From an uncultured Thiothrix sp. (GTDB taxonomy: Bacteria; Pseudomonadota; Gammaproteobacteria; Thiotrichales; Thiotrichaceae): a DNA stretch of 64,000 nucleotides. The translations under genes and the position numbers were made by a program. This document shows, piece by piece, positions 6,802 through 37,722 of this stretch (its first letter is position 1; the number at the start of each line of letters is the position of its first letter). The stretch lies in assembly GCF_937873765.1 (NCBI RefSeq), contig NZ_CALMZC010000058.1, positions 5,713-69,712 of the forward strand. Reading direction: 5' to 3'. The notes under the pieces were generated by a model. That model was not told where the DNA came from. It was given only the letters and a program-made list of their open reading frames with translations, and did no database searches.

Positions 6802-8061
6802 ATGAATCATTCAATGCAACTCTCAAATATCTTTTTTACTGGAAAAATGATTTGGGTTCCGATTGGCCTGCTGTTATTTAGCATCGTCGGCATGATCATT
6901 TTTTTTCTAGTCGCTTCATCTTGGTTTGATTATCAACAGACCATGCACATTGGCATTTTAGGCTGCTTTATTATTCTCTTGAATATTCTCTGGGTCACTT
7001 ATCTGTTTTACCGCTTTTATACCCAACAAACCGCTTGGAGTAAGGTGGAGTCAGAACAGCAAGAGTCGATTATGTGTTTACTCGATGAAATGAGCACTCT
7101 AGCAGAAGGTGATTTAACTATTCGTGCTACTGTGTCAGAAAATATTACGGGTGCAGTGGCTGACTCAGTAAATTATGCAGTTGATGCACTGCGCGAACTG
7201 GTTATTAAAATCGATGATACCTCTGGGCGGTTGACACGTTTTGCACAAATTGCCGATAAGCGCATTTCACAGTTGTCTCAAGCCAGTACTCGGCAGTCTG
7301 AAGAAATTTCCATGGCATCTTCAGCGATTGCGGCGATGACCCATTCGATTCATAAGGTTTCGCGTAATGCCGCAGCCTCTACTGAAGTTGCACGGAAATC
7401 GCTGGAAATTTCTCAAGCTGGTGCGCACACAGTACGCAGTGCTATGAGCGACATGGTAACGGTACGTGAACAAATTCAAGCCACCTCTAAACGAATTAAG
7501 CGTCTGGGCGAAACCTCACAAGAGGTAGGCGATATTGTGCGTCTGATGAATGATATTGCTGAGCAAACCAATATCTTAGCTTTAAATGCTTCTATTCAAA
7601 CCTCATCGATGTCTGGGGGGAGGCGCAGTTTTGAGCGTGTGACCGATGAAGTCCAACAATTGGCACAGCGTTCAGCCGAAGCGAGCCGCAAGATTGATTT
7701 ATTAGTACGTGCAATTCAAACCGACACTCAAGAAGCAATTGCCTCGATGGAGCAAACTACTGCTCGTGTGGTGACCAGCTCGCGGAATGCTGAGTCAGCA
7801 GGAGCGGCTTTGGATGAAGTTGAAGAGGTTTCTACTAGTTTAGCACGCTTGATCGCGAATATTTCTGATGCTTCCTTTAAGCAAGCGGATATGGCGACAC
7901 GAGTTACCAGTACCATGCAATCAATTCAGGAAGGTACTCTACAAACTGAACAGTTTAGTAAAGAAACCACCGAACTTGTTGCTAACTTGAACGAAACTGC
8001 GAATGAATTACGGCGTTCGATTGCCGACTTTACTTTGAATAAAGCCGGGTCGACCAAGTAG
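6802..8061 (+). CDS. pilJ: Methyl-accepting chemoreceptor, short and divergent PilJ
   Basis: Two TM helices; LLDEMSTLAEGDLT and EQTNILALNA motifs; operon position. Confidence 0.8.
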   Translation: MNHSMQLSNIFFTGKMIWVPIGLLLFSIVGMIIFFLVASSWFDYQQTMHIGILGCFIILLNILWVTYLFYRFYTQQTAWSKVESEQQESIMCLLDEMSTLAEGDLTIRATVSENITGAVADSVNYAVDALRELVIKIDDTSGRLTRFAQIADKRISQLSQASTRQSEEISMASSAIAAMTHSIHKVSRNAAASTEVARKSLEISQAGAHTVRSAMSDMVTVREQIQATSKRIKRLGETSQEVGDIVRLMNDIAEQTNILALNASIQTSSMSGGRRSFERVTDEVQQLAQRSAEASRKIDLLVRAIQTDTQEAIASMEQTTARVVTSSRNAESAGAALDEVEEVSTSLARLIANISDASFKQADMATRVTSTMQSIQEGTLQTEQFSKETTELVANLNETANELRRSIADFTLNKAGSTK

Positions 8062-33671: not shown

Positions 33672-34430
33672 TTATTCAGCCGTTAAAGCGGTCATTACAG
33701 ATTCTGAAATATCTGCATTGGAATAGACCTCTTGAACATCATCTAAGTCCTCTAAGAGATCAATCATTTTTAACAGCTTCTCGGCGACTTCTAAATCAGT
33801 AATTTCAGTCAAATTATCCGCCCGCATAGTGACTTCAGAGCTATCAGGAGTAAAGCCTGCTTCTACTAAAGCTGTTTGCACGGCTGCGAAATCTTCTGGA
33901 GTAGTGATAACTTCAATAGTGCCATCATCTTCAGTGACGACATCACTCGCACCGGCTTCTAGAGCAGCTTCCATCAGGGCATCTTCATTCACACCCGCAG
34001 CGAAACTCATCACGCCTAGGTTTTTGAACATATAAGCCACTGAACCATTCGTACCTAAGTTACCGCCATTCTTACTAAAGGCATGTCGCACTTCAGCAAC
34101 CGTGCGATTGAGGTTATCGGTTGAAGTTTCCACTAAAACCGCAATCCCACCAGGGCCATAACCTTCATAAGTGACATCGGTATAATTGTCTGCACCTAAT
34201 TCACCAGCCCCGCGTTTGCAGGCTTTTTCAATCGTATCTTTCGGCATATTTGCGCCGAGTGCTTTGGCAACCGCTAAACGTAAACGTGGATAAGCATTCG
34301 GATCAGCGGTTTTGCCTTCACGGGCGGCAACGGTGATTTCCCGAATCAGTTTCGTCCAAACTTTGCCACGTTTTTTATCCACTGCGGCTTTCTGGTGTTT
34401 AATATTTGCCCACTTACTATGGCCAGCCAT
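33672..34430 (-). CDS. yebC: YebC/PmpR family protein
   Basis: [20 protein letters not shown]. Confidence 0.97.
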
Positions 34431-34502
34431 AACTCAATCTCATCTACTAACTTCAAAAAATGGCAGGTAGTCTATCACAGCCTATTTATGCTTGGGCGGG
34501 TT

Positions 34503-34667
34503 TCAAATCTCGACCATCACAAAATCGGCTTTAGTGACCCCACATTCTGGGCAAACCCAATCATTAGGTACATCATCCCAGCGCGTACCAGGAACGATAC
34601 CTTCATCAGGTAAACCCAGTTCTTCATCATACATAAAGCCACAGACAAGGCACATCCAAGCTTTCAT
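34503..34667 (-). CDS. Rubredoxin (54 aa)
   Basis: Below the ORF-track cutoff. Manual translation [54 protein letters not shown] has two CxxCG motifs. Confidence 0.95.
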
Positions 34668-34798
34668 CTAATCTACTCCAAGCAAATTACAATCAGGTAT
34701 CTGGCTGGTGATTATCAGAAATGAACCTGAATAATTCAAATAAAGCTGGTGGGCAAAGTAAGAAGTAACTGGGGAAGAAAGGAGCAGTAGAAGACAGA

Positions 34799-34852
34799 TC
34801 CACTCAAACGAGTCTAAGTAGAGGAGGAGTTACTTAAACTCGCTGAGCTGGA
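34799..34852 (-). ncRNA. Cuckoo-like hairpin with ACUCCUCCUC loop in the DUF1127 3' region
   Basis: About 21-bp stem with 2 bulges; core CGAGUUUAAGUA/UACUUAGACUCG closes a 10-nt anti-SD-like loop; starts 16 nt after the stop. Confidence 0.6.
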
Positions 34853-34867
34853 GGAAAATACTTAAAC

Positions 34868-35086
34868 TTAAGCAACATGACGCTGTTCATCGTCGATGCC
34901 TTTACGGCCATGGCGAACAGCATATTCGATTTCACTACGTACTAAACCCATATCGCTTAAATCACGGTCACTTAAGGAATGCAGGTCACGGATTGCTTGA
35001 CGAATTTCAGAGCCGCTATGTTCGCTGTCATTAGCGGCAGCTTCTGGGTGCACTAAACTACTAAAAAAATTAAATAAACTTTTCAT
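34868..35086 (-). CDS. DUF1127 (YjiS-like) small protein
   Basis: DLHSLSDRDLSDMGLVRSEI fits the L-x2-LSD-x2-L-x-DxG-x2-R pattern. Confidence 0.85.
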   Translation of the reverse strand: MKSLFNFFSSLVHPEAAANDSEHSGSEIRQAIRDLHSLSDRDLSDMGLVRSEIEYAVRHGRKGIDDEQRHVA

Positions 35087-35137
35087 TTTATCTCCGCTAA
35101 AAGTTATTTTGTTTTGACCAGTGTAGCTTAAGAATTT

Positions 35138-35152
35138 TGTTGCATTGCAGCA
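35138..35152. promoter_or_regulatory. Near-palindrome resembling a PhaR-type operator upstream of the DUF1127 gene
   Basis: TGTTGCATTGCAGCA. Confidence 0.4.
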
Positions 35153-35301
35153 AGCAAGGCTTTTTCAAGGGGAGGGTGAGATAAGTTAACCTTACAATGC
35201 ATTTAAGTCGGGAACTTTTAGCGCTTTTGCTAACACCAAGCTTTCTTGGTTTTCAGGTATACTCGCCGCCATTTATAGAGCTAACCTAATATTTAAGCAG
35301 C

Positions 35302-37197
35302 ATGATTGTTTTTTCTGAACTCTCTTTACGTCGTGGCCCCAAGGCTTTACTCGAAAGTACTTCTTTTAGCATTCACCCGGGACAAAAAGTCGGTTTGACC
35401 GGTGCTAATGGTGTAGGCAAGTCGAGCTTATTCGCTCTGATTCGCGGTGAACTGGGGCAAGACAGTGGTGTTTTTTCCATGCCCCCCGCTTGGGTGTTAG
35501 CGCATGTCAAGCAAGAAACCCCTTCTAGTACGCAAACCGCCTTAGAGTATGCCCTGCAAGGCGACGCGGAATATGTGAACTTACAAGTTCAGATCGCAGA
35601 GGCAGAGGGCGCACGCTTAGGTGAACTACATGCGCGCTTAGATGCCATTGATGGTTACACGGCTGAAAGTCGTGCGGCGACCTTGCTACATGGTTTAGGG
35701 TTTAAACCTGAAGAGATGCAGCGTCCGGTTTCGAGTTTTTCCGGTGGTTGGCGGATGCGTTTGAATCTGGCACAGGCTTTAATGTGTCGTTCCGATTTAT
35801 TGCTGCTTGATGAGCCGACTAATCATCTGGATTTGGATGCGGTGATTTGGCTGCAAGATTGGTTAAAAAGCTATCGTGGCACTTTGTTACTGATTTCGCA
35901 TGACCGTGAGTTTCTGGATGCGATTTGTACGCAAATTGCGCATATTGAACAAGCACGTTTGACTTTATACGGCGGTAATTATTCGACTTTTGAAATTACC
36001 CGTGCAGAAAAGCTTGCTCAGCAACAATCTGCTTATGAAAAGCAAAAGCGTGAACGTGAGCATATGCAGCGCTATGTCGATCGTTTCCGTGCCCAAGCCA
36101 CCAAAGCTCGTCAAGCTCAAAGCCGCTTAAAAGCCCTTGAGCGTATGGAGGTGATTGCTCCAGCGCATGTGGATTCACCCTTCAGTTTTAGCTTTCGTGA
36201 CCCTGAAAAAATGCCAGATCGTTTACTCAATCTGAGTGGGGTGAGCGTCGGCTACGGTGATAAAACCATTATTGCCCATGTGCGCTTACAGATTTTACCC
36301 GGTGAACGCATTGGTTTGATTGGCCCGAACGGTGCGGGCAAATCCACTTTAATTAAATTCCTTGCGGGTCAATTACCCGCTCAAGCAGGTGAATGCTGGC
36401 AAGCACAAGATTTAAAAGTGGGTTATTTTGCTCAGCATCAATTAGAGCAGCTCAAAATTGATCAATCACCTTTACAGCATTTGCGTGCCTTAGATAAGCA
36501 AGCACGTGAACAGGATTTGCGCAATTATCTCGGTGGCTTTGCCTTTCATGGCGAACGAGTGGATGAAGCGGTTGAGCCGTTTTCGGGTGGGGAAAAAGCG
36601 CGTCTCGCTTTAGCTTTATTGATTTATCAGCGTCCTAACTTGCTGTTGCTTGACGAACCTACCAACCATCTTGATTTAGACATGCGCCTAGCCCTAAGCA
36701 TGGCTTTGCAGGAGTTTAATGGCGCGATGGTGATTGTTTCGCATGATCGCCACATGTTGAAAACCGTCACTGATCAACTCATCTTAGTCGATAGTGGTAA
36801 GGCGACTGAGTTTGATGGTGATTTAGACGATTATGCAACATGGCTACAAAACCGCTTTCGCGACGAAGAAGCAGCTAGTAAACCGGCTGCAACCACTACG
36901 ACAGCCCATAGTGCGGCTGGACGCAAAGATCAACGTCGTGAGTCAGCAGAAAAGCGTAAGCAACTGCAGCCACTCAAGCGTAAAGTCGATCAACTTGAGC
37001 AAGAAATGAATAAGCTCCATCAGCAGAAAGTCAAATTGGAAGCCGTTTTAGCTGCTCCTGAAAGCTACACTGACACGAATAAAGCCAATTTAAAGCAATG
37101 GCTACTGGATAAAAGTGCCTTGGAAGAACGTTTAGAAACCGTTGAGCTGGAATGGATGACCTTAAGCGAGGAGTATGAAACCGCTTTAGCGGAGTAG
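35302..37197 (+). CDS. ABC-F family ATPase (YheS-like)
   Basis: Two ABC domains (GANGVGKS, FSGGWRMR, GPNGAGKS, FSGGEKAR), no TM segments, coiled-coil tail. Confidence 0.92.
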   Translation: MIVFSELSLRRGPKALLESTSFSIHPGQKVGLTGANGVGKSSLFALIRGELGQDSGVFSMPPAWVLAHVKQETPSSTQTALEYALQGDAEYVNLQVQIAEAEGARLGELHARLDAIDGYTAESRAATLLHGLGFKPEEMQRPVSSFSGGWRMRLNLAQALMCRSDLLLLDEPTNHLDLDAVIWLQDWLKSYRGTLLLISHDREFLDAICTQIAHIEQARLTLYGGNYSTFEITRAEKLAQQQSAYEKQKREREHMQRYVDRFRAQATKARQAQSRLKALERMEVIAPAHVDSPFSFSFRDPEKMPDRLLNLSGVSVGYGDKTIIAHVRLQILPGERIGLIGPNGAGKSTLIKFLAGQLPAQAGECWQAQDLKVGYFAQHQLEQLKIDQSPLQHLRALDKQAREQDLRNYLGGFAFHGERVDEAVEPFSGGEKARLALALLIYQRPNLLLLDEPTNHLDLDMRLALSMALQEFNGAMVIVSHDRHMLKTVTDQLILVDSGKATEFDGDLDDYATWLQNRFRDEEAASKPAATTTTAHSAAGRKDQRRESAEKRKQLQPLKRKVDQLEQEMNKLHQQKVKLEAVLAAPESYTDTNKANLKQWLLDKSALEERLETVELEWMTLSEEYETALAE

Positions 37198-37239: not shown

Positions 37240-37722
37240 ATGAACAACCCCTACAAGACCCCACAGGCTATCCTTCAGGATTTAAGCTATCAACCTTTAC
37301 CCCCGGCCTTAAAGACTTTGTATTGGCTAATGGGTTTGGCTTTTAGCTGTTCATTTATTTCTACCACGATAGGTTTTGTCAATGTCGTCAAAGCCGCTTC
37401 GTGGATTTTCCTTTTACCTTGGACGCAGCAATTGATGCTGTTAGGCTTAGCCGGTTCTGGGTATGCCTTATTATTCGCTTTCTATTACTTTTTAGTGTTT
37501 CGACCTTTGCAATTACGTAGGCGCACGACTAGCCGCTGGTGGTTGATTGCAGTTTTGATTTTAGCGCTTTTGTGGTTATGGTTTGTGCTACTGCCTGATG
37601 ATAATCCGCAGGTAGTAAGCTCTATGGTTGATGTAAGCTTAGCCGCTGCAGAAATTGGTTTATTGATACTCGGTGGTTTATTAGCAGCTCGACCGGCTGC
37701 TTTAGAGCATTTAACGAACTAG
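37240..37722 (+). CDS. Hypothetical 4-TM membrane protein, paralog 1
   Basis: 160 aa; NPYxxP start; aligns without gaps to the next ORF. Confidence 0.75.
   Translation: MNNPYKTPQAILQDLSYQPLPPALKTLYWLMGLAFSCSFISTTIGFVNVVKAASWIFLLPWTQQLMLLGLAGSGYALLFAFYYFLVFRPLQLRRRTTSRWWLIAVLILALLWLWFVLLPDDNPQVVSSMVDVSLAAAEIGLLILGGLLAARPAALEHLTN

Follow-up and report, generated by a model that had tools for sequence, protein, structure and literature searches.

A conserved anti-Shine-Dalgarno hairpin in the 3'UTR of a gammaproteobacterial DUF1127 gene, compared with the cuckoo/CcsR RNAs of Alphaproteobacteria

Cuckoo RNAs, which consist of two to four hairpins with CCUCCUCCC in each loop, were found in Alphaproteobacteria only, among 2,680 genomes (PMC4615179, PMC8034643). 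Their DUF1127-linked neighbourhood, CIN1, is confined to the Rhodobacteraceae, Brucellaceae, Rhizobiaceae and Phyllobacteriaceae, and the link between DUF1127 and anti-Shine-Dalgarno (anti-SD) cuckoo RNAs has been reported from these four alphaproteobacterial families only (PMC4615179, PMC8034643). One DUF1127 protein, CcaF1, binds RNA and alters CcsR levels (PMC8034643). Another RNA, MmgR, is repressed by PhaR and carries a single-stranded C/U 10-mer, UUUCCUCCCU, that is needed to limit PHB accumulation (PMC12559287, PMC12542648). Both the CcsR/cuckoo RNAs and MmgR are thought to act by pairing with Shine-Dalgarno (SD) sites (PMC8034643, PMC12559287, PMC12542648). Finally, the 3' end of a Rhodobacter phasin mRNA yields a stable RNA of 75-88 nt, whose level and half-life shift upon deletion of RNase III (PMC4179960).

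An initial annotation of a 64,000-nt stretch of DNA from an uncultured Thiothrix sp. (hereafter, the window) had described a DUF1127 gene followed, 16 nt past its stop codon, by a hairpin with an anti-SD loop, and had read the pair as the cuckoo/CcsR module in a gammaproteobacterium, present there by transfer or convergence. The layout is real: folding (z -5.5) and covariation across eight species support the hairpin, and gene and hairpin lie on the same strand in gammaproteobacteria of the Thiolinea/Thiothrix group. The published distribution also bears out the view that cuckoo and CIN1 are alphaproteobacterial (PMC4615179, PMC8034643). Like ccaF1-CcsR1-4 of Rhodobacter (Cereibacter) sphaeroides and the CIN1 cuckoo loci, including NfeR1, the locus combines a small DUF1127 gene with a hairpin that begins at most ~20 nt past the stop codon, on the same strand. 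It also shares with ccaF1-CcsR an anti-SD loop of the CCUCCUCC type and stems that covary around fixed loops. The identity of the two modules did not hold up, and we describe here a single-hairpin anti-SD element of a gammaproteobacterial genus that most likely resembles cuckoo/CcsR in its working, and that a promoter motif and a sister element appear to tie to the PHB regulon.

The DUF1127 locus and its 3'UTR hairpin

The assembly from which the window was taken (4.0 Mb, 45% G+C) derives from activated sludge, and related records are those of Thiolinea/Thiothrix. Coordinates of all features are given in Table 1. The 72-aa DUF1127 protein matches PF06568 with 26.4 bits, against a gathering cut-off of 23.3, over residues 29-54. 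Its orthologues in seven species are 69-86% identical at the protein level, with 75% identity for the protein of T. eikelboomii ATCC 49788; the genome of the window carries a second DUF1127 paralogue. Orthologues and paralogues alike have the promoter layout TTGYTG-N17-TAnnnT; the DUF1127 promoter of the window is putative, because a consensus scan of 34300-35400 did not report that site. The rubredoxin gene, placed next in line by the initial annotation, is indeed there, and is found 3' of DUF1127 in 10 Thiolinea species that span two DUF1127 clades. The rubredoxin promoter is near-identical in seven of eight orthologous loci (TATTTGAAT...CATTTCTGATAAT). The complete layout, i.e., DUF1127 gene, hairpin, pyrimidine tract, rubredoxin promoter and rubredoxin gene, is common to eight species.

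Table 1. Coordinates of features at the DUF1127-rubredoxin locus, in window numbering.
Feature	Position	Strand	Basis and details
Rubredoxin gene, 54 aa	34503..34667	minus	PF00301, E 1.8e-21; SD GGAG 34676-34679
Rubredoxin promoter TTGAAT-N17-GATAAT	34711..34739	minus	Consensus scan; sole promoter-like site reported in 34300-35400
G-poor pyrimidine tract	34740..34799	minus	Composition; includes CUCCUUUCUUCCC at 34772-34784
3'UTR hairpin, 20 bp, one bulge	34800..34851	minus	Folding and covariation
Anti-Shine-Dalgarno loop, 10 nt, ACUCCUCCUC	34821..34830	minus	Loop core invariant in orthologues
DUF1127 gene, 72 aa	34868..35086	minus	ORF and Pfam PF06568; Thiotrichales-type C-terminus IEYAVRHGRKGIDD...HVA
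DUF1127 Shine-Dalgarno GGAG	35092..35095	minus	Read from sequence
Putative DUF1127 sigma-70-like promoter	35125..35153	minus	-35 TTGCTG 35148-35153, 17-nt spacer, -10 TAAGCT 35125-35130
PhaR-type operator palindrome TTGCTGCAATGCAACAA (minus-strand reading)	35137..35153	.	Core YGCRNYGCR; overlaps -35 and spacer of the DUF1127 promoter

The helix of the hairpin begins 16 nt past the TAA stop codon of the DUF1127 gene, and its inner 12-bp stem is formed by CGAGUUUAAGUA/UACUUAGACUCG. The 40-nt hairpin core folds with -16.0 kcal/mol, versus -4.7 +/- 2.0 kcal/mol in dinucleotide shuffles (z -5.5, with 0 of 200 shuffles as good), and folding of the hairpin gave z values of -4.6 to -5.5. The hairpin is kept in eight Thiolinea/Thiothrix species, as a single hairpin in every one of the eight orthologues. 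In an alignment of the eight 3' regions, 92.5% of helix cells are paired, compared with 19-48% when the partners are slid; double (compensatory) changes affect 8 of the 20 pairs, and none of 500 shuffles reached the observed values. Conservation of the loop at orthologous loci, which the initial annotation had made a condition of its reading, is strict: the core CUCCUCCU is invariant in all eight orthologues while the stems vary, the individual loops being ACUCCUCCUC, ACUCCUCCUCCUC, AACCUCCUCCUU and AUCCUCCUCCUC. We take ACUCCUCCUC to mimic the 3' end of 16S rRNA (CCUCC core). We conclude that the DUF1127 3'UTR hairpin is a selected RNA element, beyond what chance would give.

In the same alignment, 15 cells hold G-U pairs; read from the opposite strand, each would be an A-C mismatch. 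Therefore, the RNA structure lies on the DUF1127 sense strand. A reading of the opposite strand is ruled out by these cells, and there is no plus-strand ORF or start after GGAGGAG. The hairpin was also rejected as an intrinsic terminator: its stem is rich in A+U, the sequence after it is GGAUCUGUCUUC, and a terminator scan predicted no terminator-like site across 34300-35400. With no intrinsic terminator after the hairpin in the window, the 3' end of the RNA is undefined. The SD sequences of DUF1127 are ordinary (GGAG, AGGG), and extended complementarity between them and the loop was not found.

The pyrimidine tract beyond the hairpin contains 5-9% G, 30-41% C and ~70-82% C+U in the window and four orthologues, where ~22% G would be expected at the G+C content of the genome (45%). 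It is conserved in composition only, its sequence being not alignable among orthologues. The second C/U segment noted in the initial annotation, CUCCUUUCUUCCC, is present in this tract, but the proposed closure by ACUG/CAGU does not fold beyond chance (-0.3 kcal/mol, z +0.5). In the MFE fold of the full spacer, CUGCUCC (34781-34787) pairs with GGAGUAG at the rubredoxin SD.

Other architectures with the same motif were found behind more distant DUF1127 genes. In Thiolinea G016, a hairpin with loop ACCUCCUCCUCCUC 3' of the DUF1127 gene is followed by a single-stranded CCUCCC and a U7 terminator, with no rubredoxin gene downstream; in the DUF1127 3'UTRs of G007 and G013, a single-stranded CCCCUCUCCUCCUCUCCCC abuts a terminator hairpin, and rubredoxin follows. 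Altogether, an anti-SD motif lies within 130 nt of the DUF1127 stop codon in 11 of the 15 Thiolinea genomes examined. DUF1127 genes of Thiolinea G001, G010, G014 and G015 are without the element, and a comparable motif-bearing hairpin or tract was found at none of 12 DUF1127 loci from three other Thiotrichaceae genera; at three of these loci there is a lone CCUCCC. Since DUF1127 genes in four Thiolinea species and in other genera do without it, the element is dispensable for the protein. What Thiolinea keep behind their DUF1127 genes is the motif, not one particular fold. Among the long hairpins of this genome (at least 14 contiguous pairs, n = 119, strand-specific), CUCCUCC or CCUCCUC is displayed in the loop of three and the complement in none. 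When the loops of all hairpins of at least 9 bp are taken genome-wide, CCUCC is not enriched (31 occurrences versus 23 for the complement), so that the enrichment is confined to the long, strand-specific hairpins.

The PhaR-type operator and the phasin hairpin

The palindrome at the DUF1127 promoter has the consensus TTGYTGCR-N-YGCARCA. Of 28 Thiotrichaceae DUF1127 loci, 22, which come from three genera, have it 59-74 nt 5' of the start (110 nt at two loci); hairpin-less loci and the second DUF1127 paralogue of this genome are among them. The PhaR (AniA) motif of S. meliloti is YGCRNYGCR with AT-rich arms, with boxes such as TTGTTGCAGTGCACAA and TTGTTGCGCTGCACAA verified by EMSA (PMC12542648). 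The operator of the window is predicted from its match to this motif, which is an alphaproteobacterial one. A strict box pattern has 12 sites in the whole 4-Mb genome. Boxes of the same type (TTGTTGCAATGCACAA and TTGTGCACTGCATCAA) lie 5' of a phasin gene, which adjoins phaR in this genome, and among 18 phasin loci from 15 genomes, the TTGTTGCAATGCACAA box stands 5' of phasin at 11 loci (10 genomes). The motif suggests that the DUF1127 gene may be under PhaR control.

A genome scan for hairpins with motif-bearing loops revealed one at the 3' end of the same phasin gene (C39:173210-173800, Pfam Phasin_2): a 15-bp hairpin that displays CUCCUCCUCUCCUCCUCCU in its loop and precedes an intrinsic terminator. 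Every Thiolinea genome with this gene, 16 in all, has both hairpin and terminator; across 19 copies, the hairpin is 97% paired, with double changes in 12 of its 15 pairs. No gene lies downstream of it, and it also occurs in Thiolinea species whose DUF1127 gene is without a hairpin. Its score against the ar14 model is sub-threshold (22.6 bits). A covariance model of the phasin hairpin, when run on this genome, matched the phasin copy only and did not find the DUF1127 hairpin, so that no homology between the two elements can be detected. They appear to share a principle with no detectable common ancestry. Both the PhaR-type operator and the phasin 3'UTR hairpin had been missed in the initial annotation.

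Relation to cuckoo/CcsR, MmgR and phasin 3' RNAs

Covariance-model searches with RF02791 (CcsR1) and RF02344 (ar14), one of the checks named in the initial annotation, gave no match at E<=10 in the window and none at E<=1 in six Thiolinea loci, whereas scores of 27-62 bits (E 1e-12 to 1e-6) were reached by four control loci of Rhodobacterales, run together with these six. At E<=10, Rfam yielded only chance matches to eukaryotic families on the window region. The DUF1127 phylogeny did not join the locus to CcsR either. In a tree of 93 DUF1127 proteins, the window protein groups with Thiotrichales proteins, most of them without a hairpin, including relatives from three other genera; the CcaF1 clade, whose members bear CcsR arrays (42 rows), is separate from the Thiotrichales DUF1127 proteins with SH-aLRT 85-94, in an alignment of only 60 columns and hence limited resolution. 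The window protein and the CcaF1 type share a core, ELxSLSDRDLSDLG, which is 56% identical across 25 residues in a Rhodobacter protein of that type, and have different C-terminal extensions, IEYAVRxGR...AA in the Thiotrichales type and VAREAAYGK in the CcaF1 type. In both the Thiolinea and the CcaF1-CcsR groups, the first hairpin begins 10-20 nt past the DUF1127 stop codon.

The Thiolinea element also differs from CcsR in its build. It has one hairpin, whereas CcsR RNAs have 2-4 each and occur in arrays; its loop, CUCCUCCUC, retains the CCUCCUC core and is without the terminal CCC of CCUCCUCCC; it has no intrinsic terminator and matches neither Rfam model; and its host is a gammaproteobacterium. 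The protein, whose C-terminus is a different one, does not group with the CcaF1 clade, and the DUF1127 promoter carries a PhaR-type box, unlike the known RpoHI/HII promoter of CcsR. A cuckoo/CcsR RNA is further expected to be stable, induced by stress and processed by RNase E; for the Thiolinea element, low-depth metatranscriptome contigs, described below, cover the end of the coding sequence and the hairpin. Membership of the Thiolinea element in cuckoo/CcsR is thus not supported. As to the open choice between transfer and convergence in the initial annotation, a recent transfer of ccaF1-CcsR is disfavoured by the tree and by the C-terminal architecture, and, with the protein placed apart from the CcaF1 clade, convergence is a likelier origin than a transferred module.

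The element resembles MmgR/alpha-r8 of Sinorhizobium meliloti, and SisA-D of Caulobacter, in having a C/U-rich, anti-SD-like seed and a PhaR (AniA) operator, which is here a predicted one; MmgR is functionally linked to PHB and phasins (PMC12542648, PMC12559287). Unlike MmgR, a stand-alone gene that has a promoter and a Rho-independent terminator to itself and a single-stranded UUUCCUCCCU, the Thiolinea seed is a hairpin loop within the 3'UTR of a protein gene. The locus has no 10-mer of the UUUCCUCCCU type, no terminator, and no sequence similarity or Rfam match that would place it in alpha-r8/MmgR. For the phasin hairpin of Thiolinea, the closest precedent is 0381_3' of Rhodobacter sphaeroides, from a PhaP-like phasin mRNA (PMC4179960). 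Its host gene differs from the DUF1127 gene of the window, and no anti-SD motif is described in that paper.

Proposed function and rival explanations

No RNA-seq run of this organism turned up; contigs of close relatives were found in two metatranscriptomes. In a wastewater metatranscriptome (X26), a 115-nt contig of depth 8 from a close relative covers 34815-34925 (3' arm, loop and 5' arm of the hairpin, and the end of the coding sequence), and a second contig, of another relative, extends from the coding sequence into the hairpin's 5' arm. In a biofilm metatranscriptome (X21), a 151-nt contig from a close relative covers 34748-34898, i.e., the end of the coding sequence, the hairpin and ~50 nt of the tract. 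These contigs, which are short, assembled at low depth and from relatives, with DNA carry-over possible, and which cannot define RNA ends, fit weakly with co-transcription of the hairpin and the DUF1127 gene.

We propose, giving it about an even chance, that the element serves as a 3'UTR riboregulator linked to PHB, pairing with SD sites in the manner of CcsR and MmgR. The DUF1127 gene would be transcribed from its sigma-70-type promoter, which the PhaR-type operator overlaps. Given this position of the operator, the gene would probably be derepressed when PHB granules titrate PhaR. The mRNA would extend into the 3'UTR, where the 20-bp hairpin would present a 10-nt anti-SD copy in its loop, acting either while attached to the mRNA or after release as a stable RNA by processing or 3' trimming. 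Pairing of the loop with GGAGG-type ribosome-binding sites of other mRNAs, the presumed targets, would then lower their translation. This RNA may in turn be acted upon by the co-encoded DUF1127 protein, in the way that CcsR is by CcaF1. Hundreds of ribosome-binding sites would fit an anti-SD loop of 10 nt, which leaves specificity unexplained.

The DUF1127 family comprises more than 17,000 proteins, few of which, to our knowledge, have been studied functionally, chiefly the RNA-binding CcaF1. A wider reading, tentative and on balance doubtful, is that mRNA tails form an RNA arm of the PHB-sensing PhaR regulon: derepressed phasin and DUF1127 mRNAs would each deliver an anti-SD hairpin that damps chosen mRNAs, with the DUF1127 protein as a dedicated RNA partner. 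With the protein not of the CcaF1 clade, the pairing of DUF1127 with an anti-SD RNA would have arisen twice. Such a twofold origin, if true, would argue that DUF1127 proteins generally work on anti-SD RNAs, and would turn the protein-RNA partnership from a lineage quirk into a general, testable hypothesis. The PhaR-type operator points to PHB accumulation as a concrete condition in which to seek both RNA and protein, and the phasin 3'UTR counterpart suggests that carbon-storage status could be coupled to translation via mRNA tails. Since Thiolinea and Thiothrix are PHB-storing agents of sludge bulking, such regulation would be of practical interest for wastewater treatment.

Several other explanations of the locus can be weighed against the riboregulator reading. 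The one that we hold to be extremely improbable is a laterally acquired and decayed ccaF1-CcsR locus, in which one hairpin is left of a cuckoo array. The 56% identity over 25 residues to the Rhodobacter protein and the common 10-20 nt spacing of the first hairpin would fit such an origin, but the tree places the Thiotrichales proteins apart from the CcaF1 clade (SH-aLRT 85-94), among hairpin-less relatives of three other genera, the C-termini differ, the CcsR1 and ar14 models find nothing, and the PhaR-boxed promoter is common to hairpin-less Thiotrichaceae DUF1127 genes. Control of rubredoxin in cis, whereby the anti-SD loop or the C/U tract of read-through transcripts would pair with the rubredoxin SD and block translation, is very unlikely in our judgement. 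It would account for the pairing of CUGCUCC with the rubredoxin SD in the spacer fold, and for the constant order of DUF1127, anti-SD element and rubredoxin across 10 Thiolinea species and two DUF1127 clades. Yet the strongly conserved promoter in between means that the main rubredoxin mRNA is without the element, an intrinsic terminator separates the two genes in G007 and G013, the G016 element has no rubredoxin gene downstream and the phasin hairpin no downstream gene at all, and the segment that pairs is not conserved in sequence.

An explanation that we consider unlikely, and which is compatible with a riboregulator rather than exclusive of it, is a Rho-linked element for 3'-end formation or stability. 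The tract would be a rut site, at which transcription stops short of the rubredoxin promoter, the hairpin a barrier to exonucleases, and the C/U loop a part of the rut site or incidental. Rho binds YC-rich RNA, and the tract, with its 5-9% G and 30-41% C at five loci, keeps its composition without conservation of sequence; moreover, there is no terminator-like site in 34300-35400, and a metatranscriptome contig extends ~50 nt beyond the hairpin. However, the motif in the loop stays fixed whereas the tract varies, a barrier hairpin requires no particular loop, and in G016, G007, G013 and the phasin gene the motif stands beside intrinsic terminators, where Rho is unneeded. A Rho-dependent 3'-end module may coexist with the riboregulator. 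Quite unlikely, finally, is that the hairpin serves as a protein-binding site and not as an RNA that acts by base pairing, bound by the DUF1127 protein in autoregulation of its own mRNA, or by a general RNA binder such as ProQ, Hfq, S1 or RNase III. A 20-bp helix suffices in length for RNase III, and the helix of the hairpin is thus long enough. In Rhodobacter, deleting RNase III alters both the abundance and the half-life of the phasin 3' RNA (PMC4179960), and CcaF1, a DUF1127 protein, binds RNA and alters CcsR levels (PMC8034643). Against such a site, some Thiolinea species with a hairpin-less DUF1127 gene do have the phasin hairpin, and the part of the hairpin that is conserved is exactly the SD-complementary sequence.

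A PhaR-type box at DUF1127 promoters

At 22 of the 28 Thiotrichaceae loci, which belong to three genera, the DUF1127 promoter has a PhaR-type palindrome lying across its -35 element; the second DUF1127 paralogue of the window's genome (C54:66730) is counted among the loci with the palindrome (coordinates of all features are listed in the table). The motif suggests that DUF1127 genes are members of the PHB-sensing PhaR regulon. No report of such a link was found in the literature consulted. Further strict matches to the PhaR box in the same genome, taken together, form a candidate PhaR regulon. The genes downstream of them include an unannotated 127-aa protein with no Pfam match, an ORF with an isocitrate lyase-like N-terminus, and a carbonic anhydrase-like ORF (the latter two judged by eye), among others.

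Conserved blocks flanking the locus

The block GGTTAACTTATCTCACCCTCCCCTTGAAAAAGCC directly precedes the PhaR box and is part of the divergent region common to the DUF1127 and ABC-F genes. Its internal segment CCCTTGAAA resembles a sigma-32 -35 element, and no matching -10 element was seen. On the rubredoxin side, TATTTGAATTnTTnnGnnnCATTTCTGATAATC is nearly unchanged in seven of the eight orthologous loci, where the flanking tract is not alignable; an operator may be part of this block.

Features of the window, of its genome (G000) and of relatives (other G numbers; C, contigs; L, fetched loci)
Feature	Location	Remark
PhaR-type palindrome TTGYTGCR-N-YGCARCA	window 35137-35153	also 5' of DUF1127 genes in L007-L013, L106-L127
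Further strict PhaR boxes	G000:C65:20343, C34:26782, C20:66637, C50:85052, C14:185081, C10:10981	motif matches
Conserved block GGTTAACTTATCTCACCCTCCCCTTGAAAAAGCC	window 35160-35200 (-)	kept in close orthologues
Rubredoxin promoter block TATTTGAATTnTTnnGnnnCATTTCTGATAATC	window 34711-34750	near-invariant in orthologous loci
Phasin 3'-end hairpin and terminator	L128:2106-2200 = G000:C39:173815-173905	outside window
3'-end hairpin, CUCCUCC loop	G000:C54:~37570-37640 (-)
3'-end hairpin, CUCCUCC loop	G000:C6:~6880-6945 (-)
3'-end hairpin, CUCCUCC loop	G000:C56:~66690-66760 (-)
Hairpin, loop CUCCUCCUCUCCUCC	L042:672-734	Thiolinea G013
Three tandem DUF1127 genes	L016/L024/L025 = G014:C12:28082-28727	Thiolinea disciformis

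Hairpins at phasin and other genes

The phasin gene adjoining phaR is closed by a 15-bp hairpin with loop CUCCUCCUCUCCUCCUCCU, and an intrinsic terminator comes directly after it. The hairpin covaries across the 19 copies that 16 Thiolinea genomes hold: it is 97% paired, and double changes occur in 12 of the 15 pairs. The sole Rfam match, to the alphaproteobacterial cuckoo-type family ar14, is sub-threshold (22.6 bits). None of the three tandem DUF1127 genes of Thiolinea disciformis has an anti-SD element; one of the three carries two in-frame TAA stops. Two of the three CUCCUCC-loop hairpins are themselves terminators, and the third is preceded by a short ORF and followed by a terminator. The CUCCUCCUCUCCUCC-loop hairpin, located ca. 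770 nt upstream of the DUF1127 gene in Thiolinea G013, matches the phasin-hairpin covariance model with 17.4 bits.
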